Virus record (IMG/VR): IMGVR_UViG_3300021399_000132
Coordinates: 1-64,000 of that record
Strand: one strand, 5' to 3'
Length of the DNA stretch: 64,000 nucleotides
From: a virus
Taxonomy: Duplodnaviria > Caudoviricetes
Shown: in pieces, positions 692-35,592 of the stretch
Position numbering within the stretch: position 1 is the stretch's first letter
How the letters are laid out: each line of letters starts with the position of its first letter
The notes under the pieces: generated by a model
Told to the model about the DNA's origin: nothing
The model's database searches: none
Seen by the model: the letters and a program-made list of their open reading frames with translations, nothing else
Program-made: the position numbers and the translations under genes

Positions 692-997
692 ATGGAACAT
701 ATTTTGCAGATCGGCATAAATGTTGATGATGAGGTGATCAGAAGAAGAATCGAAGATCGAGCCGAGAAAGAGGTAATCGAGTACTTAAAGAATGAGGTGG
801 CAAATCACATCTTTGATATCAGGTGGGGCGGTAGTCGCGGAGACTTTTCGGAATTTGCGAAAGACGTTATCAGAGAATGCTTCGAAGATAATAAAGAGCG
901 GATTATCAAAGAAGCGGCGGAGCATCTTGCTAACAGATTTGTCAGAACGAAAATGGCAAAAGAATATCTTGTCGATGCTTTAAAAGATTCCAAATGA
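692..997 (+). CDS. hypothetical protein
   Basis: AGGAGG RBS; co-oriented in the operon. Confidence 0.8.
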   Translation: MEHILQIGINVDDEVIRRRIEDRAEKEVIEYLKNEVANHIFDIRWGGSRGDFSEFAKDVIRECFEDNKERIIKEAAEHLANRFVRTKMAKEYLVDALKDSK

Positions 998-1044
998 TTT
1001 ATTAACTAAGTAAGTTCAAACTGCACTTCCATCTAAATAAGATG

Positions 1045-1066
1045 GGCTTTTGCTGTTAGCGAAAGT
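1045..1066 (+). repeat. hairpin motif GGCTNNNGCTGTTAGCGRWAGT, copy 1
   Basis: GGCTTTTGCTGTTAGCGAAAGT; related copies at 3259-3280 and 3491-3512. Confidence 0.75.
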
Positions 1067-1373
1067 ACCAACTCGACCAGGGAAGAAATCCTGGGGGCGC
1101 AGGTGTGACCTCCTATTAACTTGTATTTCTCCCAGTCATCAAGAGCTTATCCATCACAGTTCGGTAGATTTTTCAAGTATTTCCTGAAATTAATATTACG
1201 GTTTGTGGGAAAAATTTTATAGATCTGATGTCTATCACTGGTCTGTTACTCGAAAACCATGATTTAACTTGATCAGCTGCCGTCCCTGCGGCTGGCCTCC
1301 GCCGGATATGTGATATGAGAGTTTGAACAAGCTGAGAAATTATGAGCCAATTGATTGGTAGAAAGGAGAAATT

Positions 1374-1682
1374 ATGAGCAGAAAAGGTTTTATGTTCGAA
1401 GAAGGCGAAGAAGTACGAATTGTATGTAGCGGTTCGACATTACTGAATTGTGCAGGTGGATGGGCTAGTGAAATGGAACAGTTTGTGGGAGACGGCATTG
1501 TTTACACGGTTTTACGTCGTTTTTTGAGCAACGGTAAAACACTGCCGGCTTACAGGTTGCAAGGGCCGACAGATTATGAAACGGGATGGACATGGGATGA
1601 GCGTTTACTGGAACGGGTTGACGACCCCATCATACCGGAAGTATCTCTCGGCGATTTATTCAACGGGGGCTATGTAGTATGA
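1374..1682 (+). CDS. small SH3/KOW-like hypothetical protein, paralogue 1 of 4
   Basis: FEEGEEVRIV start; C-terminal EVSLGDLFNG; AGGAG RBS. Confidence 0.8.
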   Translation: MSRKGFMFEEGEEVRIVCSGSTLLNCAGGWASEMEQFVGDGIVYTVLRRFLSNGKTLPAYRLQGPTDYETGWTWDERLLERVDDPIIPEVSLGDLFNGGYVV

Positions 1683-1969
1683 CGCGGTTTTCTATTCAAG
1701 ATCAGGTGAGGGTAGTACGGGCAGACAGTGACTGGGAATACTGGTGTTCTGCGATGAATAACACTGTTGGTTTTGACGGAGTAGTTGTGGATTATGAAAC
1801 AGATCTTGATGGTGAGCGGTACGCGACTGTGCTTTTTACATGCCTCGATGGTGAAATCTATTTCTTCCGTGATTGTTCTCTTGAGTATTCATGGTTATTT
1901 AATGACGATGAGACACTCGAGAGTAAAATGTCCATTTCAGAATTATTAGGAGGGTTAAACAGTGCATGA
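1679..1969 (+). CDS. small SH3/KOW-like hypothetical protein, paralogue 2 of 4
   Basis: FSIQDQVRVV start; C-terminal MSISELLGG; ATGA overlap. Confidence 0.8.
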   Translation: MTRFSIQDQVRVVRADSDWEYWCSAMNNTVGFDGVVVDYETDLDGERYATVLFTCLDGEIYFFRDCSLEYSWLFNDDETLESKMSISELLGGLNSA

Positions 1970-2213
1970 ATTTAATATTGGCGACCTTGTAAAGGTGGTC
2001 AAAATACCAACCGAGTGGTTTGGATATGTTCCGGCCCTTCATAAATACTATCATGAGGTTGGAGAGATTGTTTTTAAGACGTCGGATACGGGAAACGTTT
2101 ATCGTGTTATTTTTTCTGATGGAGATGATTGGAATTTTCCAGCCAACTGCCTCGAGCTGATCCCTCAACCTGTGCTTAACCCCGGGGATTTGTCCGCGTT
2201 GTTCGGCCGGTAA
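1962..2213 (+). CDS. small SH3/KOW-like hypothetical protein, paralogue 3 of 4
   Basis: FNIGDLVKVV start; C-terminal LNPGDLSALFG. Confidence 0.8.
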   Translation: MHEFNIGDLVKVVKIPTEWFGYVPALHKYYHEVGEIVFKTSDTGNVYRVIFSDGDDWNFPANCLELIPQPVLNPGDLSALFGR

Positions 2214-2226
2214 GGAGACTATCGTT

Positions 2227-2478
2227 ATGTTTAAAGAAGGCGATATCGTAGAAGTAGTCGAAGAGCCGTGGCGTTTACATATGGACGGAGATACTGACAC
2301 GTATATTGGCAAAAAAGGCATAGTGAGATATTCAAACTACACGACGGGTAATAGCATTGTAAAGATTGAAGGTAAGATAAACTGGTTCCGTAATTCGGAA
2401 ATTGCAATTTATGACACACTTGAGCCCGGCGATTTACCGGGGCTTTTTAGAGGAGGTGGTAATAATGCCAAGAATTGA
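2227..2478 (+). CDS. small SH3/KOW-like hypothetical protein, paralogue 4 of 4
   Basis: FKEGDIVEVV start; C-terminal LEPGDLPGLFRG. Confidence 0.8.
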   Translation: MFKEGDIVEVVEEPWRLHMDGDTDTYIGKKGIVRYSNYTTGNSIVKIEGKINWFRNSEIAIYDTLEPGDLPGLFRGGGNNAKN

Positions 2479-6478: not shown

Positions 6479-7093
6479 ATGTCGTTAGGGTTTGTCCTTT
6501 CCTTTATATCAATGGTTTTCATTGCTCTAGGTTATCTGCTGTTCTTTGTGTTTAAAATTGTTGCTGGTTCGATTCATTCAAATAATATGAACAAGCATGA
6601 GACGAACGTCGGGAGACTGAGGGAACGGTTGAGTTACACGCCGAGCGAAAAGATTGACGCCGTTACCGTGATGACAAGATATGTGGAAGCTGGCGCCATC
6701 GGGAAGTATTACGGCGATGAAATGGTACAGATTTTCGGAGAGAATTGGGAGCCAGAGCTGCGCAGGTTGGTTTCGAGAGAGAAGATGCATCTTAAATATA
6801 ACAACCTTTATAAATGGCTTGGGTACATTGCTTTGGCAAGAGATGGCAAATGTGGTACGAACATGCTACTGGACTTTGATGGCTTCGGCCCGACAAAGCA
6901 TAACTTAATGGCGGTTAAATGCATTGAAGACAATCTACGAAAATCAGGGCTTGACGTTCGTCTTGAAATTGCTAAAGTAGACGACACATCCTATTATGCA
7001 AGGGTGTCCGAACTGGAATACCACGGGATTTTTAATCCACCTAATTACATGTGGGAGGATGTAGTAAATGTCGAGAGATGTAATCAACATTAA
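6479..7093 (+). CDS. membrane-anchored hypothetical protein
   Basis: GAGAGG RBS before ATG 6479; long N-terminal hydrophobic helix. Confidence 0.7.
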   Translation: MSLGFVLSFISMVFIALGYLLFFVFKIVAGSIHSNNMNKHETNVGRLRERLSYTPSEKIDAVTVMTRYVEAGAIGKYYGDEMVQIFGENWEPELRRLVSREKMHLKYNNLYKWLGYIALARDGKCGTNMLLDFDGFGPTKHNLMAVKCIEDNLRKSGLDVRLEIAKVDDTSYYARVSELEYHGIFNPPNYMWEDVVNVERCNQH

Positions 7094-7961
7094 TGTACTC
7101 AAAGAAAACAGGGTACGAAAACTTGCCGATGGCATGATCGCCCCGGCAAAAGAACACTTCGAAGAAGAACTCGCAATTGATCACTCTGCTGATCCGATTA
7201 AAGATCTCCATGATATTAACCGGATTTCGAAGTACTTGATTGAACATGGACGGTACAGGGATAACATGCTGTTCATTGTTGGGATCAACTTCGGTTTGAG
7301 AGTGAGTGACCTGCGGGTTCTTCGCTTTTCCAATCTGATTAATGACAATTTAACTTTCAAAGATACGTTCCCGGTTTTTGAAAAGAAAACCAGAAATACA
7401 AGAAAGAAGAAAAAGAACCGCTACATCACGGTAAATAATGCCGTTGTTGATGCGGTTACTTTGTTCTTGGAACACACTGATGGTATTAGCCTGAGCGACT
7501 ATATGTTTAAGGCAACTTCGAACCGTGGCAAAAATCTGGGTAAACCACTTGCCATTCAGTCGATCAACAGGATCTTGACTGATCTGGCAAATGAACTTCA
7601 TCTCAATATTAAGATGTCGAGCCACTCATTAAGAAAGACATTCTGTTACCATCAGATGGTAATGAGCAACAACGATCCTCGAAAGCTTCTCCTGCTGCAG
7701 AAGATGCTCAACCATTCGTCACCGGCAATGACCTTAGAGTACATTGGTATTACGGGCGAGGAAATCGAGGAAGCGTACAAGAAACTTAACTTGGGTTCTT
7801 TAACAGAGAACTATCTTGTCGACAGCACCATTATGGAATGTGGTACAGCCGACGATGAACCGGAGACAACAGAGATTGTCAACAAGCCGCAGGAATATGC
7901 AATCAAATTCCCGCAGGCAATTACAAATACAGAGCAGCCAAGCAATACGGTGTACAGCTAA
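7068..7961 (+). CDS. XerD-like tyrosine recombinase
   Basis: Catalytic set present: GLRVSDL, HSLRKTF, LNHS, LEYIG; no arm-binding N-terminal domain. Confidence 0.9.
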   Translation: MSRDVININVLKENRVRKLADGMIAPAKEHFEEELAIDHSADPIKDLHDINRISKYLIEHGRYRDNMLFIVGINFGLRVSDLRVLRFSNLINDNLTFKDTFPVFEKKTRNTRKKKKNRYITVNNAVVDAVTLFLEHTDGISLSDYMFKATSNRGKNLGKPLAIQSINRILTDLANELHLNIKMSSHSLRKTFCYHQMVMSNNDPRKLLLLQKMLNHSSPAMTLEYIGITGEEIEEAYKKLNLGSLTENYLVDSTIMECGTADDEPETTEIVNKPQEYAIKFPQAITNTEQPSNTVYS

Positions 7962-8789: not shown

Positions 8790-9328
8790 TGGTAGATTTA
8801 GGAGCATATGCGCAGATCGAGAATCTTAATGGGATTATGAATTCAAATGGAATTCGTGTTCCAAGATTGAGAGGGCTTCGCCTGATGGTTAATGAAGAAC
8901 CGATCGACATTGATGAGGTGTGCAAGAACGTTGAGATTGACCTGGTCGAACACTTGTGCAGATGCGGTTGGAACCCGAAGGCCAACTGGCACAACTATTA
9001 CTGGAGAACAGACCGGGCAATTAAGAAATATGTTGATTACAAAAATAATCGTGTCAGATGGGAGTTAATTCATGGCAAAAAACGTCGTATTTTGAAGACA
9101 GAAGTGAAGAATCAGGTCAAAAAATATAGAAAACAGTACGAAATGTACAACAAATACGCTGGTAAAACTGGTGTTTTGTACATCCACGCAAGAATCGGCG
9201 GTGGGAATTGGCCGACATATTACAAAGACGTGGTTGGTAAACCGTGGTTTATTGAAAGAATAGATGACGCTTTTGATAGTACGTACTGTGACATCTATGC
9301 AAGAATAAAGGAGGTTGATGACGAATGA
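8789..9328 (+). CDS. conserved phage hypothetical protein
   Basis: TAATG coupling; HARIGGGNW motif. Confidence 0.8.
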   Translation: MVDLGAYAQIENLNGIMNSNGIRVPRLRGLRLMVNEEPIDIDEVCKNVEIDLVEHLCRCGWNPKANWHNYYWRTDRAIKKYVDYKNNRVRWELIHGKKRRILKTEVKNQVKKYRKQYEMYNKYAGKTGVLYIHARIGGGNWPTYYKDVVGKPWFIERIDDAFDSTYCDIYARIKEVDDE

Positions 9329-10449
9329 TTTATCTTGACAACGCTGCTTCGACTAAGATGTCTCCGGGGGTTATTGAGGCAATGAAGTCCTATCTCGGAG
9401 AAGGGTGTTATGGGAATCCTGACTCGGTGCATTCGATTGGTATCAATGCAAACTCAATGGTTAATGCGGCAAGGATGGCAGTTGCAGATGCAATCGGGGC
9501 AAAGCCTGAGCAGATCATTTTCACTTCCGGTGGAACGGAAGCAAACAACCTGGCGATCCTCGGATGCGGGGCGAGGTATGGTGTCTGTTCGTATGGAGAA
9601 CATGACTCAGCATATAATGCGATCATGAAATATCCGGCGCATAAAATTGTCCGGCTTACCAACAAGGGCGATATTGATTATGACGATCTGGAAAAGGTGC
9701 TTAACAAGGCGGCTGGATGGGATGCTGTGCTGGCTTTCTCTGCGGTGAACAACGAGGTTGGGTCTGTAAATCAGATTAATAAAATTGCCGAGTTGAAGCC
9801 AGCTGATGCGTGGCTCCATATTGATTATGTACAGGCATTTGGGCAGTATCCAATTAACGTGAATGATTACGCCATCGATTCGATGTCGTTGTCGTCCCAC
9901 AAGATTCACGGGCCGCAGGGCGTAGGGGCTCTGTATGTAAGAAGACCTGAGAAACTTAAGCCAATTTTACAGGGTTCGACGGCGCAGGAGTTTGGACTCC
10001 GTCCGGGTACAAAAAATGTTCTCGGTATTGTCGGGTTTGGTAAGGCGTGCAAGGAGGTGGCGCAGGGTTTAACGGCAGTTCCAATTACAACGAGAGATTT
10101 ATTTGTGAAATGCTTATTAAAAGAAATGAAAGATGCATTTGGTGATAAGGCGTATGATATAATAAGAATCAATGGTTGGAGCAATCCGAAAATTGTAAGC
10201 CTGACCATCCGTGGTGTTGATGCAGAAACATTAATCATGATGCTCTCAGCCGACGGCGTATGTGTCTCGGCTGGATCTGCGTGCCACGCACACGAATCTA
10301 AGCCAAGTAGGGTTCTTACTGCGATGGGGATTTCGGATGCGGATGCGATGTGCACAATCAGGGTTTCGTTCTCCAGCGTAACAACAAATATGGAGGTTGC
10401 CGTGGCGGCAGACAAGATTGTTTGTGCCGTTAAAACAGTGAGGACTTAA
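9325..10449 (+). CDS. iscS: cysteine desulfurase, IscS/NifS family
   Basis: MIYLDNAAST, FTSGGTEANN, HIDYVQ, SSHKIHGPQG (PLP Lys), SAGSAC (catalytic Cys), IRVSF. Confidence 0.95.
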   Translation: MIYLDNAASTKMSPGVIEAMKSYLGEGCYGNPDSVHSIGINANSMVNAARMAVADAIGAKPEQIIFTSGGTEANNLAILGCGARYGVCSYGEHDSAYNAIMKYPAHKIVRLTNKGDIDYDDLEKVLNKAAGWDAVLAFSAVNNEVGSVNQINKIAELKPADAWLHIDYVQAFGQYPINVNDYAIDSMSLSSHKIHGPQGVGALYVRRPEKLKPILQGSTAQEFGLRPGTKNVLGIVGFGKACKEVAQGLTAVPITTRDLFVKCLLKEMKDAFGDKAYDIIRINGWSNPKIVSLTIRGVDAETLIMMLSADGVCVSAGSACHAHESKPSRVLTAMGISDADAMCTIRVSFSSVTTNMEVAVAADKIVCAVKTVRT

Positions 10450-10451
10450 TT

Positions 10452-10859
10452 ATGGGAAATGAGTACTTTATTGATATAGAAAAGGCTGTTGAAGAGAAAC
10501 GACGCGAGGATCTGGTTGATCTGTTGCGTGTGATTTCCGAAAAAATAAACAATAAGAACGTAGAATATATAATAGATGTGCACCAAGTTGCAAGATTCGA
10601 ATTGATAAAAGAGCGCATTCAATCATATTTTGCAGATATGCCAGAATTTTCTGTTAAAAATTCTATTGATGAAGATTGTACCAGCGGCTTAATAACTATT
10701 ACCGCCGAAGGCGTTTTAAATTTGGAACTTACTGAAGAGATAAAGATGCTGTTGAAAAATTGCACAAGGATGGATATTTCGCCACGCAATAACGGCATTG
10801 TTGATTTGGACTTTAATTTTCTTAACTTTCGTAAGAAACGCTATAGAGGTGACAAATGA
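10452..10859 (+). CDS. hypothetical protein
   Basis: Coupled to iscS. Confidence 0.75.
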   Translation: MGNEYFIDIEKAVEEKRREDLVDLLRVISEKINNKNVEYIIDVHQVARFELIKERIQSYFADMPEFSVKNSIDEDCTSGLITITAEGVLNLELTEEIKMLLKNCTRMDISPRNNGIVDLDFNFLNFRKKRYRGDK

Positions 10860-11194
10860 TGAATTGTGTTGAACTGGCGAATGCTATTTTGACTGGTGAA
10901 GTCGAAAAAAAACAATATTCCAAACCTCTATTAGACGACGCATTGTATAATAATGTAATGGTAGCTGTCACTGCATTGTCAAAATTATTTGATACCGATG
11001 AGGAACGCAGTTTCGATGTTGAAATAACCCGGAACGGAAATGCTGTTAATGTTGAGGTGTGTTTCAACACGTATTATTTTCAATTTACACAGATCAGCGG
11101 ATTGGTTTTTGATTCGGTCTTCGCAAATGCAAAACGATTGGTCGTCACAACAGTAGATGACGACAATTTGGTTAATGTTAAATTGATATATTGA
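10856..11194 (+). CDS. hypothetical protein
   Basis: ATGA overlap; GAGGTG RBS. Confidence 0.75.
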   Translation: MMNCVELANAILTGEVEKKQYSKPLLDDALYNNVMVAVTALSKLFDTDEERSFDVEITRNGNAVNVEVCFNTYYFQFTQISGLVFDSVFANAKRLVVTTVDDDNLVNVKLIY

Positions 11195-11217
11195 CAATAG
11201 GAGGTTGGTATAAAAGA

Positions 11218-11448
11218 ATGAACAAAGCCAGAAGAAAGAGTATTAGACAGGCCATGTCATATTTAGACATGGCTTTTAATTTGGTGGAAAGTGCTAGAGA
11301 CGAAGAAAAAGATTGCCTTGACAACATGCCGGAGAACCTTGAATATTCAGAACGCTATGAGAAGATGGAAAACGCGGTCGATAAATTAGACGACGCGGTA
11401 TCGAGTATTGAAGAAGCGCGAGATGCACTTGAAGAGGCGGCGGAATAA
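11218..11448 (+). CDS. acidic helical hypothetical protein
   Basis: AGGAGG RBS; MNKARRKSI...DEE...LDNMPENL..SERYE family. Confidence 0.8.
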   Translation: MNKARRKSIRQAMSYLDMAFNLVESARDEEKDCLDNMPENLEYSERYEKMENAVDKLDDAVSSIEEARDALEEAAE

Positions 11449-11474
11449 GTCGTCTCTTTTGGTTAGGAGGATTC

Positions 11475-11804
11475 ATGGATTTATCTGAGTTTGACGCATT
11501 TGTAAAAGATAACAACTCAAATGGCTACTACGGTTTTAGTACTTTGATCAATTATGCTGCAACATCCAAAGAACATTTTGTCATCAAATTCAACTATGTT
11601 TTTGTAAATGGCGAGGCTAGATCAATTTCGTTTTCAAATCCCGTCATTGCCATAAGGCTTGACAGCGTTACGCACATTGATCGAATCGATCTTGATTCTG
11701 GCAGAGTTCAATTCAATATAACTTGTGAAGATAATTTAATAAATGATGGAGGAAAATATGTTGAAAAAATTATCTGGGTACCCGTACGTAAATCGGGCTT
11801 TTAA
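11475..11804 (+). CDS. hypothetical protein
   Basis: AGGAGG RBS; stop TAA 11802-11804 abuts the MazF frame. Confidence 0.75.
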   Translation: MDLSEFDAFVKDNNSNGYYGFSTLINYAATSKEHFVIKFNYVFVNGEARSISFSNPVIAIRLDSVTHIDRIDLDSGRVQFNITCEDNLINDGGKYVEKIIWVPVRKSGF

Positions 11805-12238
11805 CTTGTGCTAACTACAAAGGCCATTCGCCTAGACACGGTGACATTTACCTGCTTAGGTTTGATGGCATCGAGCACGAACAGTCGGGCATTCGCCCTG
11901 GGCTTGTAATTTCCAATAACAAAGGGAATTTTTACAGCCCAAACATTATAGTATTACCGCTCACCACATCACTTAAACGCTTGAGCCAGCAAACGCATGT
12001 TGTTATTAAGGCAAAGGATTCTGGACTTGCACAAGATAGCATGGTATTGTGCGAGAATCCAGTTTGTGTTTCAAAACAGCGGCTCATCCGTTATTTGACA
12101 ACCGTACGACCGCAACAATTGGAAGAAGTTGCAACCGCCTATTTATTAAGTACCGGAGTTTTATCGAGTCTGTCGGATGAACAACTCATTAATATTAGAA
12201 AGAAGGCATTGTCTCTTGACTCATTACTAATTGCGTAA
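11804..12238 (+). CDS. MazF/PemK-family endoribonuclease; reading frame lacks an in-frame ATG/GTG/TTG at its 5' end
   Basis: Frame is open from 11792: PRHGDIYLL...EQSGIRPGLVISNNKGNFYSPNIIVLPLTT...THVVI...GLAQDSMVLCE...SKQRL. It aligns with B. subtilis NdoA/MazF including the Arg and Thr catalytic positions. The ORF track shows only the C-terminal half (TTG 11981). Confidence 0.85.
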   Translation, partial: TCANYKGHSPRHGDIYLLRFDGIEHEQSGIRPGLVISNNKGNFYSPNIIVLPLTTSLKRLSQQTHVVIKAKDSGLAQDSMVLCENPVCVSKQRLIRYLTTVRPQQLEEVATAYLLSTGVLSSLSDEQLINIRKKALSLDSLLIA

Positions 12239-12266
12239 TACATATTAAAGAAAGAGAGGTAAAAAT

Positions 12267-13259
12267 GTGTATAATGACGCAATTAAGAGGCGATATCTCG
12301 ACGAGATAGACGCGCACAATCGCACATTGGCAATGTATGAAGGCGATCTTGAAAGGATTTCTCGTCTCGAAACAAAGCTCGGCAAAGACCTGAGCGCTTT
12401 TACTGTTGATGAGTTCGAAGAGGCAGTAAATAGTATTGGTGGGGTTTCAACACATTCATTACAAACTCGCGCATGTTTACTGAAAAGATATGCAAGGTGG
12501 GTAATCGATAGCGGTTTGGATGAATTGAATCCAAATCATGCGCTTTACAATCTATCAGTAACGGAAGTTGCGGATACAACTTCTAACATCTCTAAAAGTT
12601 TAATTAAAGATCCACAACACTTAAAAAGGATTCTTGATGCAATTGACGAGTACAATGAAACGCCGCCTTCGTTTATGGGGTTAAATAAAATAAGACGCGT
12701 TTTTGCGTGGCTCATGTATTCAGGGTTTGCACAAGAAGATATAGTCATGGTGAAAGACAGTGATGTGGATATCAAACATCGAATGATTACATTTAAATCT
12801 GATGTTTACCCAATTTATTATTTGGCATTGCAGGATTTTCAAGATCTGCTTTCTATGGAAACTATGTCTACAAAGAAAACCTCGAAGAAGATCGTCATGC
12901 AATTTCCAAGAGTGGATGGCGATCTTCTCCTTCGGGGAGAAGCAAACCCGGTTTTTAAGTCCTTATATAATAACTTTGGCATGCTTGTAGCCGCAGCTGG
13001 AAAAGTAAACCCGGTCGTAATACCATTGCCATATAAAAAAGTTCACATCTCTGGGCTCTTTTACCAAGCATATCTAGAAGAGATTGAAACTGGATTGGAA
13101 CCGCGATTCAGAGTACAGGCGGAACGTGACCTAGAAACATCAAAAGATTGGGAAACGGCGAGCATTGAATCGAAGCGTGACAGGATTTATAAGAAAGCTC
13201 TGAATTACCGAACCGATTATAAAAAATGGAAAAATGCATTCGATCTTGTGAATAATTAA
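12267..13259 (+). CDS. MrpR/YopR-like repressor (degenerate tyrosine-recombinase fold)
   Basis: MYN..IK..YLD, ETKLGKDLSAFT, S.Q....LL..Y..W.I, L.YSG...D.V.VK..DVD, SGLFYQAY resemble SPbeta YopR/MrpR; similar length (330 aa); no HxxR...H...Y catalytic set. Confidence 0.7.
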   Translation: MYNDAIKRRYLDEIDAHNRTLAMYEGDLERISRLETKLGKDLSAFTVDEFEEAVNSIGGVSTHSLQTRACLLKRYARWVIDSGLDELNPNHALYNLSVTEVADTTSNISKSLIKDPQHLKRILDAIDEYNETPPSFMGLNKIRRVFAWLMYSGFAQEDIVMVKDSDVDIKHRMITFKSDVYPIYYLALQDFQDLLSMETMSTKKTSKKIVMQFPRVDGDLLLRGEANPVFKSLYNNFGMLVAAAGKVNPVVIPLPYKKVHISGLFYQAYLEEIETGLEPRFRVQAERDLETSKDWETASIESKRDRIYKKALNYRTDYKKWKNAFDLVNN

Positions 13260-13261
13260 AC

Positions 13262-13286
13262 AAACCTGCGGAAGCGCAGGTTTTTC
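13262..13286 (+). terminator. intrinsic terminator
   Basis: AAACCTGCG-GAAG-CGCAGGTTT followed by a T run. Confidence 0.85.
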
Positions 13287-13340
13287 TTTACATACTAAAA
13301 TAAACAGCTACACTATAAATACAACCAATGAAATCATGAT
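13287..13340 (+). promoter_or_regulatory. sigmaA-like promoter of the replication operon with downstream CAACCAATGAAATCATGAT box
   Basis: TTTACA-16-TACACT; the box matches 22212-22230 at 18 of 19 nt. Confidence 0.5.
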
Positions 13341-13418
13341 ACACGGAGAAAAGGGTAAATGCAGTTCGACTCTGCAATTCTCCATCACCAAGCAGAGCAA
13401 GGAGGTCAGGTAAAGATC

Positions 13419-14192
13419 ATGGAAGAGATTGAAGAAGTAAAACTCAACTTGGTTCAGAAACTCGCCAAGATCAGGGAAATGTCCAATGCTGTAACAAAAT
13501 CTAAATCCGGTTATGGTTACAAGTATGCAGACATTACTGAAATTTTGGCAAAAGTCACAGCCGGAATGAAGAAGTACAGCGTAAGTCTTATCCCGGAGAT
13601 TGTGCCAGGTACATTCGTGGTAGAAACTATCCGCAAAGAGAAGACTAAAAAAGCGAAAGACGGAACGCCATTCATCGAGGTGTCAATGGAGTCTCAGGTT
13701 AATGCGCAGATGTTATTCAAGTGGGTTAATGATGAGAACGCCGAAGAAACAATCACGGTGCCGTGGCATCTTGTTGGATCGCAGTCAGATCCATCGCAGG
13801 CTATGGGGTCAGCCCTTACATATTGTACGAGGTATTTCTTGACAGAGTATTTCCAGATTGCAACGCCAGAAGATGATGTCGATGCATACCGCAGCAAGCA
13901 GAAAGAGGCTGAGGAGCAGGAAGAAAAGGCACTGGTTGAAGCAATGGTTTCCGAGATTGATCAGGCAGTTAGAACATATCTCGAAGGGCATTCTGACAAG
14001 GGCGATGAAGTAAAAGAATTCATTGGCAGATATGTAAAGGGTTCCAACTATACGAAGATTAAGGACTCTAATACTGCCGGCAGACTTCTCAACGACTTTA
14101 AAGCAAAGTTTGTCGAAGTGCAGGTAAGTTCCCAGGCCGAGGAACCTGAGAAAGTGAAGCAGGAAGAGAAGAAAGGTAAAGGTGGAAAATAA
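13419..14192 (+). CDS. ERF-family ssDNA annealing protein
   Basis: GYGYKYADITEI and QAMGSALTYCTRY motifs; GGAGG RBS before ATG 13419. Confidence 0.85.
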   Translation: MEEIEEVKLNLVQKLAKIREMSNAVTKSKSGYGYKYADITEILAKVTAGMKKYSVSLIPEIVPGTFVVETIRKEKTKKAKDGTPFIEVSMESQVNAQMLFKWVNDENAEETITVPWHLVGSQSDPSQAMGSALTYCTRYFLTEYFQIATPEDDVDAYRSKQKEAEEQEEKALVEAMVSEIDQAVRTYLEGHSDKGDEVKEFIGRYVKGSNYTKIKDSNTAGRLLNDFKAKFVEVQVSSQAEEPEKVKQEEKKGKGGK

Positions 14193-14193
14193 C

Positions 14194-14574
14194 ATGGGTT
14201 TCAGAAAAGATGCATATGCAACAGTGTGGAGAGTAGAATCAATCTCTCCGACACTTACAAAGGCGCAGCTGTCAATCAGCCGTAAGAACAGAGATGGTGA
14301 ATACGAACAGGATTTCGGATCATACGTAGCATTCATCGGCACATCTGCTGCTGCTAAGGCGGCAAGATTAACCGATAAAGATAAGATCAAGCTTGGTGAT
14401 GTTGATGTGTCCACAAAGTACGACAAGGAAAAGAAGATCATGTACACAAATTTCAAGGTTTTCTCCTTCGAGACAATGGATGAGGTAAACGGGGACAAGC
14501 CGGAACATACAAATAAAGCAGAGGAAAAGACAGAACCGGAAATCGAAATCGACGATTCGAACCTGCCGTTCTAA
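14194..14574 (+). CDS. ssb: single-stranded DNA-binding protein
   Basis: OB-like core; acidic tail ending DDSNLPF. Confidence 0.8.
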   Translation: MGFRKDAYATVWRVESISPTLTKAQLSISRKNRDGEYEQDFGSYVAFIGTSAAAKAARLTDKDKIKLGDVDVSTKYDKEKKIMYTNFKVFSFETMDEVNGDKPEHTNKAEEKTEPEIEIDDSNLPF

Positions 14575-14589
14575 TGAGAAGGTGGCTGC

Positions 14590-15384
14590 ATGTCAGAAAA
14601 GGATTACAAGTCTCTTATTGAGAAGATGACGTGGAGCTATTCGCGAATTGACTGCTTTAACACCTGCAGGTATAAATGGTTTCTCAGGTACATTGATGAT
14701 CCGCTTGGGGTAAAGTCAGAGCCGATGTTCTATAGCTCATACGGTTCGTTCATCCATGAATTGCTGGAAGGATTCTACAACGGTAAATATACGAAGGACG
14801 AGCTCCCTACAATATTCCTGTCGCAATTCGGTAAAAGGGTTCGTGGTGAACGACCGCCGGGCGGAATCGCCCAGAAGTACATCCAATCTGGATACGAGTA
14901 TTTGAAGTCATTCGAACCATTTCCATACAAGATGCTTGGCGTAGAAAAACGAGTGGCATTCAGCGTTGGGGGCAATCGGTTTATAGGGTTTATCGATTTC
15001 CTCGGTGAGAAAGATGGCGAACTGTACATCATCGACAACAAGTCGCGTGATCTCAAACCGAGAAGTAAACGCAAGAAGCCAACGATAAAAGACATGGAAC
15101 TTGATGAGATGCTGAGGCAGTTGTACCTGTACGCTGCTGCTGTGAAAGAAGAGTACGGGAAATTCCCTAAGGCATTGTGCTTCAACTGCTTCAAAAGCGG
15201 TGTCTTCATCGAAGAGCCATTCGTAAAAGAACGGTTTTATGAGACGCTCGAGTGGGCTGAGAAGACGATCGATAGGATCACCAACGCAACGGAGTTCTAT
15301 CCGAATCTGGATTACTTCTTCTGCAGGTGGTTGTGTGAGTACCGCAACGAATGCTGCTATGTAGACAGGGGTGATAAAGAATGA
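14590..15384 (+). CDS. PD-(D/E)XK exonuclease, Cas4/AddB-like, Fe-S type
   Basis: WSYSRI..F..C, E...F.GFID...IIDNKS; C-terminal C..LCEYRNEC. Confidence 0.85.
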   Translation: MSEKDYKSLIEKMTWSYSRIDCFNTCRYKWFLRYIDDPLGVKSEPMFYSSYGSFIHELLEGFYNGKYTKDELPTIFLSQFGKRVRGERPPGGIAQKYIQSGYEYLKSFEPFPYKMLGVEKRVAFSVGGNRFIGFIDFLGEKDGELYIIDNKSRDLKPRSKRKKPTIKDMELDEMLRQLYLYAAAVKEEYGKFPKALCFNCFKSGVFIEEPFVKERFYETLEWAEKTIDRITNATEFYPNLDYFFCRWLCEYRNECCYVDRGDKE

Positions 15385-16712
15385 GAGCGGATGACATAAA
15401 CAGTATCGAAAGTGAAGCGGGAATTATTGCATCGCTGATACATAACCCGGAGCTTGTTTACTACTCCGAGTTCCTTCACCCCAACCACTTTACCAACAAA
15501 GAAAACAGGCTGATCTATACGGCAATCTGCGATCTCGTCAAAAGAGACATTAAGCACATCGACCCGTATAACGTCATCGAATCTCTGAATGCTTCCGAGG
15601 CAACACGAAAACTCGCCGAGGGGCTCTCCGTAGAAAAGCTACAGGAACTGTTCGAGATGAGCGATGTCCTTTGCAGAAACACTGTCGAAGAATATAAGAT
15701 GCTTGTCTCGAATGTGCTCGATGCGGCGTTCCGGCAAGAGGTTTTCCGTAAACTTCAGGAATGTCAGGGGTTGTGCTATGACCGCACGGTCGAGGGAGTT
15801 CAGCAAAAGATCTACAACATTATCGACGAAACAATGACAGCGTACTCTGTTATTGATGACACTCCAGTGTTTGGTGAGGTGATTGACGATTTGTGGACAG
15901 AGATTGAAGCACATCAGGATGGGAAATTCGCAGGAACGCCGTTCAAATTCCCAACACTTAATGAGTATGTGACGATTGAGCCGGGTGAACTGGTAGTCCT
16001 CGGTGCGCCAGCCAAAGGTGCTAAGTCGATGTTTATGCTAAATGAAGCTGTCGATCTTATGCGCCGAGGGAAATCTGTTATGTACATAGACAGCGAACTC
16101 TCAAGCAGATTATTCCTGTGCAGGTTGGTTTCACATCTCACGGGTATTGAATTCCGTAGGGTTCGGAGTGGTAACTATACCGCCGAAGAGTACGATCAGA
16201 TCCAGTCAGCCTTGGCATGGGTTAAACAGCAGAAATTCGTACACCTGTACATGCCGCTGTTCAGTCAGGATGCGATTTACACAGCAGTCCAAAAGATATC
16301 TCACAAGTTTGACGGGCTTGACGTGTTGATCGTTGATTATCTGAAATCAAGCGGTGATTCAGATGCATTCGCGACCTATGCAGAACTCGGAAAGCTTACC
16401 GATATGGTAAAGAACGACATCGCTGGCGCAATGGGAATTGCAGCCCTTGCTGCGGCACAGCTCAACAACTATGGAAAGCTGGCTGACAGCGCGAAGATCT
16501 ACAGAAACGCAAGTTCAATCTTGCTTCTGACAGATAAGAGCGATGAAGAGATGGAAGCTGACGGAATCGAATGCGGTAACAAAAAGCTCATCGTTTCTCA
16601 TAACAGAAACGGAATGCAACATGTGTCCGGCGAATGGATTGACATCGAGTTCGAAGGCAACACCTGTATGCTGACCGAAGCAAAGCAGCACATCCCTGCA
16701 ACGCCATATTAA
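15381..16712 (+). CDS. DnaB-like replicative helicase
   Basis: N-terminal DnaB domain, Walker A variant GAPAKGAKS, DSEL, IVDYL, AAQLN, IADS-like LADS. Confidence 0.9.
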   Translation: MRADDINSIESEAGIIASLIHNPELVYYSEFLHPNHFTNKENRLIYTAICDLVKRDIKHIDPYNVIESLNASEATRKLAEGLSVEKLQELFEMSDVLCRNTVEEYKMLVSNVLDAAFRQEVFRKLQECQGLCYDRTVEGVQQKIYNIIDETMTAYSVIDDTPVFGEVIDDLWTEIEAHQDGKFAGTPFKFPTLNEYVTIEPGELVVLGAPAKGAKSMFMLNEAVDLMRRGKSVMYIDSELSSRLFLCRLVSHLTGIEFRRVRSGNYTAEEYDQIQSALAWVKQQKFVHLYMPLFSQDAIYTAVQKISHKFDGLDVLIVDYLKSSGDSDAFATYAELGKLTDMVKNDIAGAMGIAALAAAQLNNYGKLADSAKIYRNASSILLLTDKSDEEMEADGIECGNKKLIVSHNRNGMQHVSGEWIDIEFEGNTCMLTEAKQHIPATPY

Positions 16713-22122: not shown

Positions 22123-22234
22123 TTCACATATTCATTGGTTTACTATATAATTAGTTCATACCAATCAAAGATTGGTGGTCGCCAGATACGGGGCGACAAA
22201 AAATATGTTTTCAACCAATGAAAACATGATTGGT
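22123..22234 (+). promoter_or_regulatory. sigmaA promoter with CCAAT/ATTGG operator-like boxes
   Basis: TTCACA(22123)-17-TATAAT(22146); TTCATTGGTT in the spacer; ACCAATC-AAA-GATTGGT at 22160-22176; ACCAAT...ATTGGT at 22214-22234. Confidence 0.7.
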
Positions 22235-31290: not shown

Positions 31291-32553
31291 ATGTCTGAAA
31301 AAAGAAAAGACAAGAAGGGCAGGTTGTTGCGCCAGAATGAAAGACAGCGCAGCAACGGAATGTACGAATATAGGTACATTGACGGCGGTGGCACCAAGCA
31401 CAGTGTATACAGTTGGCGGCTGGTGCCCACCGACCGGGTTCCATCGGGCAAAGACGATAAAAAACCGTCATTACGGGAGCTTGAGGACGATATTCTAAGA
31501 GAAATCTCGTCAGGCATTAATCCCAGTTCATCAGCACTCACACTCAATGAGTGCTTTGACTTGTACATGCAGTCGACTAAGCTGCTTCAAAGGAAGACCA
31601 GAGACGAGAAAGCCAGAATATATAAAGATAAGATCAAAGACGTTTTCGGGAAGAAAAAGATCTCCAAGATAGCCAGAAACGACGTCAGAAACTTATATAT
31701 CGCCATCCTCGAATCTGGCGGGTCAATGGATTCAGTCACAAAAGCCGATCAAACGTTGAGCTGTGTGTTCGAAAATGCCATTGCAAACAGGGCAATCAAC
31801 TACAATCCATGCAATGGCGTTGTAGCAGAACTGAAAAGAGTACTTCGCTACACCCGCGAGCGCAAGCACAGTTTGACTATAGCTGAGCAAAATGCCTTCC
31901 TTAATTATATATCGGGGAGTAATAAGCACAGCCACTGGTACCCGTTCTTCAAGTTCATGCTTGGTACTGGGTGCCGTATCGGCGAGGCTCTCGGTCTCAC
32001 TTGGGACAATTGTGACTTTGAAAACGGTGTGATTAGTATTGACCACGCCATTCGTTATTACAAGCTCGGCGACTCGGACGATTATGGGCTGGAGATCACA
32101 AAGCCTAAGACAAACGCTGGCGTTCGCACTATACCCATGCTCGATGCGGTTAAAGAATTATTACTTGCCGAACGTGATAAACAATCGCGGATGCTGCTTA
32201 AAGATGTGGTAGTAGACGGAATGACCGGATTTGTGTGGAGAACAACACGCGGAACTCTCCCAATCCCTGGGACAATTAACGCAGCGCTCTACACCATCCA
32301 AAAAGATTACAACTTGGAAGAGGAATCTACGGCAAAGAGAGATGGGCGCGAACCTTTATATCTTCCCAAGTTCTCGGTGCATGTCCTGAGGCATACATTC
32401 TGCACCAGATTGTGCGAGAATGAATCGAATGTAAAAGTTATCCAAGAAGTAATGGGGCACGCTTCGATCATCACAACGATGAACATTTATAATGAGGCTA
32501 CGATGGATGCGAAACGCGAATCGTTCGAAAAGTTGAATGGAAAAATTGTTTAA
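31291..32553 (+). CDS. int: tyrosine integrase, Tn916/Tn1545-like
   Basis: N-terminal arm-binding domain (KRKDKKGR.L...GMYEYRY), GCRIGE, KPKT, HVLRH, MGHAS, IYNE. Confidence 0.95.
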   Translation: MSEKRKDKKGRLLRQNERQRSNGMYEYRYIDGGGTKHSVYSWRLVPTDRVPSGKDDKKPSLRELEDDILREISSGINPSSSALTLNECFDLYMQSTKLLQRKTRDEKARIYKDKIKDVFGKKKISKIARNDVRNLYIAILESGGSMDSVTKADQTLSCVFENAIANRAINYNPCNGVVAELKRVLRYTRERKHSLTIAEQNAFLNYISGSNKHSHWYPFFKFMLGTGCRIGEALGLTWDNCDFENGVISIDHAIRYYKLGDSDDYGLEITKPKTNAGVRTIPMLDAVKELLLAERDKQSRMLLKDVVVDGMTGFVWRTTRGTLPIPGTINAALYTIQKDYNLEEESTAKRDGREPLYLPKFSVHVLRHTFCTRLCENESNVKVIQEVMGHASIITTMNIYNEATMDAKRESFEKLNGKIV

Positions 32554-34572: not shown

Positions 34573-35592
34573 TCATTTGATGTATCCGATGAACTTCCCG
34601 TCCTTGTCGAATGTGACAGGGACGTTATGCAAACCGGTGAACATTTCACCGTTTTTGCCAAGGAAATACCATTCGTTGTTATATTTAAGCCATCTGCTTG
34701 CAGCCATGGTGCCATCCTTCATAAGGTAGTACCATGTGCCATTCGATTTGAGCCACCCGGTTTTCATACGGCAGTTTTCATCGAAGTAATACCACTTGTC
34801 GCCGATCTGTTTCCATCCAGTTACCGCCGCACCATCAGTGCCGAGATAGTATTTTCCATCTTCGAGCGTGAGCCAGCCTGTCTGCATGTATCCTTCGGCG
34901 TTGAAGTGATACCATTTGCCGTCGATCTTTGACCATCTATCAGCCGGGTATGAGCCGTCCACATTCTTGTACCACCAGCCTTTGGCGTCTTTCTGCCAGC
35001 CGCCGGAAAGGTACGGATTATAGATAAATCCGATAAAAGTCTGTCCAAGAATGTTATACGGCGGTTTGTGTTTTGTCAGGAAGAAACGAGTTCCCCCATA
35101 ATTTGATTGTGATACGGTGATTGTGCCGTCAACGGCAACATCCTCAACCGTGCCAACATGTCCGCATCCGTCTAAGCCATTCCAAAGATTACCTGACTTC
35201 CACACAATGGTCGCTCCGATCTTCGGAGTGTTCCCCGTGTTGAGTCCGTTCTTCTTTGCAACGGCAAGCCAGTCTTCTGCGTTGCATGTGGGCAGCTTTG
35301 CATTTGCTGTTGCGCCGCCGATCTCAAGAGCCCTGCCGTATACGTACCCAACGCAGTTGGGAAGGCATGAGTTACCAGAAATCAAGATGCAGCGATTGTA
35401 ACCGCCCTTGCCATACTTAAGGTAGTAGGGGTTGGTTGTTGATGGGGCTGTCAGTCTGGCTGTGTATCCAATAGCCCCGATGCCTTCTGGCTTCTCCTCG
35501 TCTTCCTCTGGATAGATAATTTCAATACCATCCTCCTTCAGAGACTGTTCGAAGTCATCGTAAGTAATTGTCTGAAGTTCCTGCTCAGGCAT
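34573..35592 (-). CDS. endolysin: CHAP domain plus choline-binding-type repeats
   Basis: NCVGYVYGR (Cys), GHVGTVE (His); repeats of GW...GKWYY...G.M.TGW. Confidence 0.9.
   Translation of the reverse strand: MPEQELQTITYDDFEQSLKEDGIEIIYPEEDEEKPEGIGAIGYTARLTAPSTTNPYYLKYGKGGYNRCILISGNSCLPNCVGYVYGRALEIGGATANAKLPTCNAEDWLAVAKKNGLNTGNTPKIGATIVWKSGNLWNGLDGCGHVGTVEDVAVDGTITVSQSNYGGTRFFLTKHKPPYNILGQTFIGFIYNPYLSGGWQKDAKGWWYKNVDGSYPADRWSKIDGKWYHFNAEGYMQTGWLTLEDGKYYLGTDGAAVTGWKQIGDKWYYFDENCRMKTGWLKSNGTWYYLMKDGTMAASRWLKYNNEWYFLGKNGEMFTGLHNVPVTFDKDGKFIGYIK

Follow-up and report, generated by a model that had tools for sequence, protein, structure and literature searches.

A MazF endoribonuclease gene joined to an MrpR/SroF-like gene in phages of gut Clostridia

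The window analyzed here is the first 64 kb (64,000 nucleotides, nt) of the 89,745-bp IMG/VR virus record IMGVR_UViG_3300021399_000132, which belongs to a temperate tailed phage of a Bacillota host and has a CheckV completeness of 76%. It carries a gene of the MazF/PemK family (mazF) directly upstream of a gene for a protein of the MrpR/SroF type, and our main finding is that these two genes form a conserved operon, closed by a terminator and lying just 5' of the replication/recombination operon. A large group of phages of gut Clostridia carries in this way its own MazF joined to a repressor-like gene, with the experimentally defined MazF hexamer UACAUA at the edges of the repressor-like cistron. 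The operon may be a phage-owned form of the lysogeny control known from the phages phi3T and SPbeta. No paper on a phage-encoded MazF joined to an MrpR/SroF-like gene was found in the literature; new in this work are a survey in which the two genes adjoin in 79 of 80 loci, the UACAUA architecture, and a start-less mazF with a conserved leader.

Conservation of the mazF and mrpR-like pair

The features of the operon in the window are listed below.

11792..12238, plus strand: mazF-like open frame (PemK profile, substitution ratio, invariant Arg and Thr), stop codon at 12236-12238
about 11837 to 12139, plus strand: PemK domain within the mazF-like frame
about 12160 to 12235, plus strand: subfamily-specific C-terminal helix within the mazF-like frame
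12254-12259, plus strand: Shine-Dalgarno sequence (SD) GAGAGG of the mrpR-like gene
12267..13259, plus strand: MrpR/SroF-like gene, 330 aa, GTG start (PF22822, family profile, AlphaFold2 (AF2)/Foldseek)
13262..13290, plus strand: intrinsic terminator (9-bp stem, 4-nt loop, T-run), kept in all close relatives

The original prediction, made from the sequence of the window alone, had placed the two genes 28 nt apart with a terminator behind them, and had proposed a survey of how often pemK-like and mrpR-like genes adjoin in phages. The distance from the mazF stop to the mrpR-like start is exactly 28 nt (12239-12266), the terminator-like hairpin with its T-run lies at 13262-13290, and the adjacency proved to be conserved. 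With a MazF alignment as the query, IMG/VR yielded 80 loci, which group into 38 clusters at about 90% identity; the distance from the mazF stop to the start of the MrpR-like gene is at most 40 nt in 79 loci and 449 nt in the remaining one. The MrpR-like protein has nine close homologues (51-98% identity) on phage contigs, all with the genes in one and the same order: first a recombinase, a cysteine desulfurase and small genes, then mazF and the mrpR-like gene, then ERF, SSB, a PD-(D/E)XK nuclease, DnaB, DnaG and DNA polymerase III alpha. Scans of metagenomes and genomes brought in 13 more lineages. Their MrpR-like proteins are just 25-31% identical and their MazFs about 48%, and the two genes remain adjacent, 16-37 nt apart. 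In a distant clade the pair stands alone behind its own strong promoter, TTGACA-17-TGnTATACT (loci L015 and L030), and a terminator-like hairpin follows the mrpR-like gene of L015. Distant relatives of the locus were found in Oscillospiraceae and Clostridia metagenome-assembled genomes (MAGs), and the phages that bear the pair infect gut Clostridia.

MrpR-like genes without MazF occur (L018 and L020), whereas this MazF subfamily was never seen without an MrpR-like gene. No MrpR-like gene adjoins the MazF genes of two deposited phages, Coprococcus phage NatCom_22372 and Psychrobacillus phage Perkons. When the window is compared with L028, a mosaic boundary falls precisely between mazF (82-87% nucleotide identity) and the mrpR-like gene (98-99%), and the two genes are therefore exchangeable separately. 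Along positions 9266-16260 of the window, L028 is unalignable at 10.4-11.3 kb (33-46% when forced), and 76-92% identical over 11.3-12.2 kb including mazF, the identity rising abruptly to 98-99% at the mazF stop codon and beyond. Other rearrangements were seen in L009 (5882-7210), where an HNH/RRXRR endonuclease is inserted between the mrpR-like gene and ERF, and in L031, a Clostridia MAG (871-2418, minus strand), where a 515-aa gene on the opposite strand splits mazF from the mrpR-like gene.

The MazF-family endoribonuclease

The translation of 11804..12238 matches PF02452 (PemK_toxin) with E 2.6e-22 and 79.5 bits (cut-off 23.1), and the window MazF matches PHROG 1936 with E 3.4e-26; among solved structures, with E values of 7e-17 to 2e-15, it comes nearest to S. 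aureus MazF and B. subtilis EndoA. In a phmmer alignment the catalytic Arg (GIRPG) and Thr (PLTTS) align with those of S. aureus MazF, and both are invariant among 13 family members (R23 and T46 of the family alignment). We take this pair to correspond to R25 and T48 in B. subtilis MazF numbering. The MazF/PemK identity, with catalytic Arg and Thr, that had been noticed in the window is borne out by these matches, and the frame 11792..12238 encodes an endoribonuclease of this family, with intact catalytic residues and predicted activity. Pairwise ratios of non-synonymous to synonymous substitution (dN/dS) in mazF are 0.05-0.13, start-less lineages included, with dS up to saturation (window versus L028: 0.064 at dS 0.77); mazF is therefore translated.

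An extra C-terminal helix of about 25 residues, which the original prediction had pointed out as perhaps regulatory, is real and is kept throughout the MazF subfamily, which counts 2,714 proteins at E <= 1e-20. The AF2 model of MazF from a 13-row alignment (predicted local distance difference test, pLDDT, 48) is too poor for placing this helix or for judging an SH3-like barrel and dimer, and a complex prediction of the MazF dimer with the MrpR-like protein scored 0.02, which weighs neither way on binding. Neither MazE nor arbitrium genes had been seen in the window, and this extends to the whole 76%-complete record, in which MazE (PF04014) and AimR (NF038310) were unmatched.

The MrpR/SroF-like protein

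The likeness of 12267..13259 to MrpR was confirmed by three kinds of comparison. The N-terminus of the 330-aa protein matches PF22822 (MrpR_N_CB) with E 1.5e-13 and 51.6 bits (cut-off 27). A profile of its family, run against the PDB, found phi3T SroF (3.7e-10) and SPbeta YopR/MrpR (1.8e-8) and no other match. The AF2 model (pLDDT 87.5) has YopR, MrpR and SroF at Foldseek ranks 1-6 (E 3e-8 to 4e-7), with XerA, Tn1549 Int and lambda Int ranking below them; identity to SroF/MrpR in these alignments is just 14-17%. At the recombinase Arg-I position the protein reads F/A (YSGFAQED versus SGRRKAEL, from a low-probability hhalign alignment and by eye), and no HxxR motif was seen by eye, so that Arg-I appears to be lost. 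Thus, the protein is of the MrpR/SroF type, with a modelled integrase fold and predicted DNA binding, and by homology we infer that it is the lysogeny repressor of the phage. Its candidacy also draws on the presence of an integrase, on a search of the whole record for HTH_3/XRE-type repressors, which found none, and on a terminator followed by a conserved promoter and box on its 3' side. Tblastn of deposited phages with the MrpR-like proteins of the window and L015, megablast of the mazF/mrpR-like region, and an initial single-sequence scan of viral contigs gave no match.

UACAUA sites around the mrpR-like gene

The strict hexamer U^ACAUA is the cut site of B. subtilis MazF and equally of the L. 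monocytogenes and S. aureus enzymes (bioRxiv 10.64898/2026.08.06.743204). By analogy, the phage MazF probably has the same specificity. Two copies of the hexamer bracket the mrpR-like gene in the window.

12239..12244, plus strand: TACATA, candidate MazF self-cleavage site, abutting the mazF stop, with the mrpR-like SD 9 nt further on
13289..13294, plus strand: second TACATA, at the end of the terminator T-run, overlapping the -35-like TTTACA of the next promoter (13287-13314)

There is no TACATA within the mazF or mrpR-like coding sequence (CDS) of the window. The junction copy is present in 22 of the 38 IMG/VR clusters, against 0.53 expected, and in 10 of the 13 other lineages, against 0.13 expected; where the gap is at least 16 nt it is found in 21 of 27 clusters. 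Up to 75 nt past the mrpR-like stop, a post-terminator copy occurs in 17/38 clusters (1.6 expected) and 11/13 other lineages (0.39 expected). The motif is nearly strand-specific, its reverse complement being found in 4/38 clusters at the junction and in 0/38 after the terminator. By synonymous shuffles, the mrpR-like CDS has 2 UACAUA versus 6.3 expected (P=0.02) and the mazF CDS 2 versus 2.5, while the longest downstream open reading frame (ORF) is enriched, with 22 versus 9.4.

The plus strand of this genome carries the early block. An endolysin with CHAP and choline-binding domains (34573..35592, minus strand) sits in a minus-strand block, which is taken to be that of the late genes. On the sense strand there are 18 UACAUA in the 33.9-kb early block (0.53/kb) and 9 in the 55.8-kb late block (0.16/kb). 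The antisense density is 0.32/kb in both blocks alike.

Translation of a start-less mazF

The original prediction began mazF at 11804, where no start codon lies. From 11792 the frame is open, behind an in-frame TAA (11789-11791), and it has no ATG, GTG or TTG before the TTG at 11981, in the middle of the domain. The same start-less mazF is present in L006, L003/L039 and L026, independent assemblies from different samples, and in L028 the sole start candidate is a GTG at the GD[V] codon. A short leader frame precedes it.

11475..11804, plus strand: upstream 109-aa gene (ORF list), whose 3' end holds the SD and ATG of the mazF leader
11748..11814, plus strand: leader ORF, with SD GGAGG at 11748-11752, ATG at 11758 and stop TAA at 11812-11814, encoding MLKKLSGYPYVNRAFNLC; one base behind the mazF frame
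11807..11814, plus strand: candidate recoding site TGTGCTAA, where UGC-stop (leader frame) overlaps UGU-GCU (mazF frame); invariant in the DNA alignment

All 12 lineages of the clade have the leader SD (GGAG) and ATG (TTG in L028) inside the 3' end of the upstream gene, and a leader frame that is open up to the motif. This frame ends as TGC-TAA or TGC-TGA on TGTGCT in 11/12, with a length of 15-19 codons; L025 reads past. A rough estimate of the chance of open middle segments in the leader frame is 0.0015. The Gly codon of the upstream gene at the leader SD is GGA in 12/12 lineages (genome GGA usage 0.23), and the codon before Glu (GAA) is NAT in 8/8, keeping the ATG in the leader frame, with the residue varying between D, Y, H and N. 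The initiation signals of the leader are therefore held by selection at the nucleotide level and not by the overlapped protein. At the motif itself, TGT and GCT are each single-codon in 12/12 lineages, as are only 3 of 69 other invariant residue columns.

These comparative data lead us to favour, by a little, the reading that mazF is made through a -2/+1 frameshift at UGUGC-stop. Ribosomes would enter at the SD-AUG leader that begins inside the upstream gene; with UAA or UGA in the A site, the peptidyl-tRNA-Cys would slip from UGC back to the overlapping UGU (-2, net +1), and the toxin would be made by just a small share of ribosomes. As tRNA-Cys reads both UGC in the leader and the overlapping UGU in the mazF frame, the product of such a slip would read ..NLC-ANYK.., resembling the N-termini of normally started relatives (MNCAKE.., MKTCAEA..). 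Some points tell against a frameshift. Slips of -2 are rare in bacteria, no conserved RNA structure was found 3' of the slip site (-6.4 kcal/mol, little covariation), and no SD-like stimulator was found at the site. Furthermore, lineages with in-frame mazF starts keep the same open leader and ending; the leader may therefore serve coupling instead of frameshifting.

Translation without such a frameshift is a minority possibility that we take seriously: the start could be ATT 11846 (the GD-I codon) or ATC 11792, or mazF could be reached by reinitiation behind the stop of the upstream gene, or by GTG 11808 with a -1 slip at A_AAG. There is an ATT at the GD[I] codon in the window, L006 and L003, with a GTG there in L028, the stop of the upstream gene is 1-4 nt from TTG and GTG codons, and A_AAG or A_AAA follows the GTG in the window, L006, L011 and L009. 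However, L026 offers none of these routes, the A_AAG site is missing in L003, L028 and L026, and the GTG 11808 route works in just 4 of 8 lineages. A start at GD[I] would also drop the conserved ..TCA..SPRxGD N-terminus, which is translated in normally started relatives, and these routes leave the invariant TGT-GCT codons and the preserved leader SD and ATG without explanation. That mazF is a decaying pseudogene in this lineage, as the missing canonical start codon and the gene callers that passed over it in four independent assemblies might suggest, is highly improbable, since the frame is open with dN/dS of 0.05-0.13 and invariant catalytic residues, and the start-less layout recurs in independent samples. 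Two other routes were excluded: a -1 frameshift from the 109-aa gene, by mazF-frame stops past the end of that gene in L003, L011 and L009, and transcriptional slippage at the A-run of the leader, by the in-frame TAA at 11789-11791.

A possible phage-owned circuit and its alternatives

In phi3T, host MazF degrades most phage mRNAs and spares the six-gene sroF operon, favouring lysogeny (bioRxiv 10.1101/2025.11.27.690993; PMC10769878). Our proposal is that the mazF-repressor operon is a phage-owned version of this phi3T/SPbeta logic, in which MazF spares the repressor message. Taken with its component steps, namely the repressor role, the U^ACAUA specificity and the frameshift, which we infer, we judge it about as probable as improbable. 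The RNase and the repressor-like gene would be co-transcribed. A cut at the junction would separate the toxin cistron and leave it open to decay, giving negative feedback, and a cut past the terminator would shorten transcripts that read through into the replication genes. The repressor message, free of sites, would be spared, and the site-bearing early replication messages would be cut. Low frameshift yield together with six-base specificity could explain the absence of an antitoxin gene; possible reasons for host survival without one are this specificity, low-yield recoding, and a host MazE or an unrecognised partner. A fuller version of the scheme is tentative and rather doubtful as a whole: the phage would have internalised the host MazF arm of an SPbeta-type circuit without antitoxin, the toxin would be tamed by six-base specificity and, in one clade, by the -2/+1 frameshift, which would make its dose track termination efficiency, and the sites of the operon itself would excise a cleavage-immune repressor message.

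The original prediction had offered two roles for the phage MazF. The first, an active RNase of the phage tied to its repressor, is supported by purifying selection and by the bracketing of a site-poor repressor cistron with UACAUA. The second, a decoy that titrates host MazE or poisons host MazF dimers, found no support; the catalytic residues are invariant and the candidate cut sites conserved.

Several observations weigh against the proposed circuit. The junction TACATA is found in none of the 11 clusters with a gap below 16 nt, nor in L030. Depletion of the cleavage motif in the repressor mRNA, which had been suggested as a check, stands for the hexamer and fails for the pentamer: UACAU is not depleted in the operons (20 versus 22 expected), nor by synonymous shuffles in the mrpR-like CDS (5 versus 7.6, P=0.17) or mazF (3 versus 4.2). 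The hexamer depletion is itself modest, and the lineages share ancestry. By hand count, the phage MazF and S. aureus MazF agree at only about 37% of their aligned positions, which bears on the proposed UACAUA specificity. L015 and L018 carry a divergent XRE-type helix-turn-helix (HTH) gene nearby, and the MrpR-like protein therefore need not be the sole repressor. A DGQHR motif search of the record gave no SroE/YopQ-like protein; a Sar/YopT-type antirepressor was not searched for. In addition, the post-terminator TACATA overlaps the -35-like TTTACA, and promoter or operator constraint could therefore explain that copy.

This last point leads to the view, which we consider unlikely, that TACATA is a DNA or promoter element, either a -35-like box or the core operator for the MrpR-like protein or RNA polymerase, and not a MazF site. 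The post-terminator copy does lie 16 nt before a -10-like TACACT (promoter 13287-13314, with TTTACA as the -35-like box), and in the distant clade it is followed by a conserved TATCAA..TAAT context. But the junction copy lies outside any promoter context, at a variable 0-15 nt from the stop, and has nothing beyond the hexamer in common with the other copy; the near strand-specificity of the motif also tells against this view. The SroF operator in phi3T has 24 bp (bioRxiv 10.1101/2025.11.27.690993), and an invariant 6-mer across repressors of 25% identity suits a conserved RNase better than a long operator of this type. Moreover, TACATA equals a cut site that was defined experimentally and independently.

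The pair could also be a toxin-antitoxin, addiction or abortive-infection module without a role in lysis or lysogeny, with MazF checked by the MrpR-like protein, the 109-aa protein or host MazE. In PHROG, phage MazF is classed with morons and host takeover, phages often carry lone MazF genes, and an operon with the toxin gene first and a DNA-binding partner second is reminiscent of higBA and mqsRA. The asymmetry noted above, by which MazF is never without an MrpR-like gene while L018 and L020 have the latter alone, is that expected of an antitoxin. We nevertheless give this module a low probability, as antitoxin families were searched for and none was found, the mosaic break seen against L028 makes a close pairwise co-adaptation less likely, and a plain toxin-antitoxin model predicts neither the conserved UACAUA sites nor a site-poor repressor CDS. 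Quite unlikely, in our judgement, is an early lytic function, with MazF as a host-shutoff RNase and the MrpR-like protein as a DNA-binding accessory of replication/recombination (a binder of an origin or of a recombination site, or an early-to-middle regulator) in place of the lysogeny repressor. It would fit the position of both genes, co-oriented with and directly 5' of ERF-SSB-nuclease-DnaB-DnaG in every relative, the separate divergent XRE-type repressor candidate in L015 and L018, and the distance of the MrpR/SroF homology (14-17%). On the other hand, a terminator stands between the pair and the replication operon in L015 as well as in the close clade, the pair of the distant clade has a strong promoter of constitutive type to itself, the best fold and profile matches are two characterised repressors and not active recombinases, and the record holds no other repressor candidate.

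If the phage-owned circuit is true, lysogeny control would have in selective RNA cleavage a general layer that phages themselves encode and that extends beyond Bacillus. The operon would also be a natural example of a type II toxin kept without antitoxin, and its toxin gene a case of a rare recoding, the shifty-stop -2/+1 frameshift.

Neighbouring features

Downstream of the promoter of the ERF operon lies a box that is kept upstream of ERF in relatives.

13322..13340, plus strand: 19-nt box CAACCAATGAAATCATGAT, repeated at 22212-22230

Two copies at up to 3 mismatches compare with 0.05 expected. The box is possibly an operator for the MrpR-like protein or a 5' untranslated region (UTR) element. 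Its consensus, CAACCAATGAAA[T/A]CATGAT, precedes the ribosome-binding site of the first gene in two early operons. Within it, the self-complementary ATCATGAT (13333-13340) can pair with the ERF start region GATCATGG, with a non-significant fold z-score. The probable start of ERF is ATG 13419 (SD AAGGAGG), in agreement with relatives (products of 253-257 aa), rather than ATG 13359. The 5' UTR of the ERF operon (window 13343-13400) also holds a tRNA-like minihelix in which GGAGAA pairs with TTCTCC around the T-arm-like hairpin GCAGTTCGACTCTGC. It is conserved between the mrpR-like gene and ERF in L003, L009, L011, L026 and L028, with ..ACCA next in most relatives, and could be an RNase P/CCA-enzyme handle or a tRNA attachment-site remnant. 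ARAGORN and Rfam made no call on the minihelix, and over 10.5-14.5 kb they gave no credible match.

Upstream of mazF, the 109-aa gene is found in 10 loci by tblastn; the close clade conserves it and the distant clade has weak look-alikes of it. Its protein was assigned no Pfam, PHROG or Atlas family. The small proteins upstream of mazF have no family assigned and no match to an antitoxin family. Two genes 5' of mazF in both clades is an 85-aa coiled-coil protein with the motif DNxPENL..ERY (window 11191-11448; L014 578-829; L018 409-642), which belongs to PHROG 4068 (function unknown) and is kept even in the mazF-less L018. A cysteine desulfurase (Aminotran_5, 374 aa, window 9325-10449) is constant in the synteny block 5' of mazF in all longer related contigs.

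Besides the MrpR-like protein, the genome encodes three tyrosine recombinases with Phage_integrase domains, at window 7068-7961, at 31291-32553 and at genome 87279-88304 (L002 7279-8304, minus strand). The second of these (31291..32553) is a Tn916-type integrase with an N-terminal Integrase_DNA domain. A LAGLIDADG endonuclease is located at genome 84587-85579.

Comparison with known systems

Chromosomal mazEF of B. subtilis (ndoAI/ndoA), S. aureus and L. monocytogenes shares with the phage gene the predicted PemK fold, the catalytic Arg and Thr and the proposed U^ACAUA specificity, and gives its best sequence matches (E ~1e-16). It differs in that the phage locus has no MazE gene: instead of being preceded by an antitoxin, mazF is followed by the gene for a 330-aa predicted DNA binder. 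The phage proteins also have the extra C-terminal helix of about 25 residues, and mazF of this clade has no start codon of its own. The lone phage MazF-like growth inhibitors (PHROG 1936) belong to the same family, are likewise borne by phages and have no adjacent MazE; those in NatCom_22372 and Perkons are shorter as annotated (357 and 363 nt).

The proposed translation of mazF has a counterpart in shifty-stop recoding, of which the +1 frameshift of prfB (release factor 2) at CUU-UGA-C is a known case; -2/+1 slips beside stops in E. coli were reportedly described by Weiss, Dunn, Atkins and Gesteland in 1987. In both, the P-site tRNA can re-pair with an overlapping cognate codon (here UGC to UGU) while a stop occupies the A site, and a short upstream frame would feed the main one. 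Here, in contrast, the proposed slip is -2 on tRNA-Cys, the product is a toxin and the basis is comparative data.

The closest system is the sro operon of phi3T/SPbeta (sroA-F, with SroF = MrpR = YopR), whose repressor is the best structural match of the 330-aa protein and is an integrase-fold, non-catalytic DNA binder of the same Pfam family, as the 330-aa protein appears to be. Both systems seem to tie MazF to the repressor message, the repressor CDS here being poor in UACAUA and bracketed by sites. In those phages AimX and YosL inhibit MazF (PMC10769878; bioRxiv 10.1101/2025.11.27.690993); here AimR was searched for in the record and none was found, and the hosts are gut Clostridia and not Bacillus. 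The neighbours of the repressor gene also differ, with mazF upstream and ERF downstream of the mrpR-like gene instead of SroE/YopQ and Sar/YopT. While in phi3T/SPbeta the MazF is that of the host, here it is encoded by the phage, in the same operon and directly upstream of the repressor-like gene.

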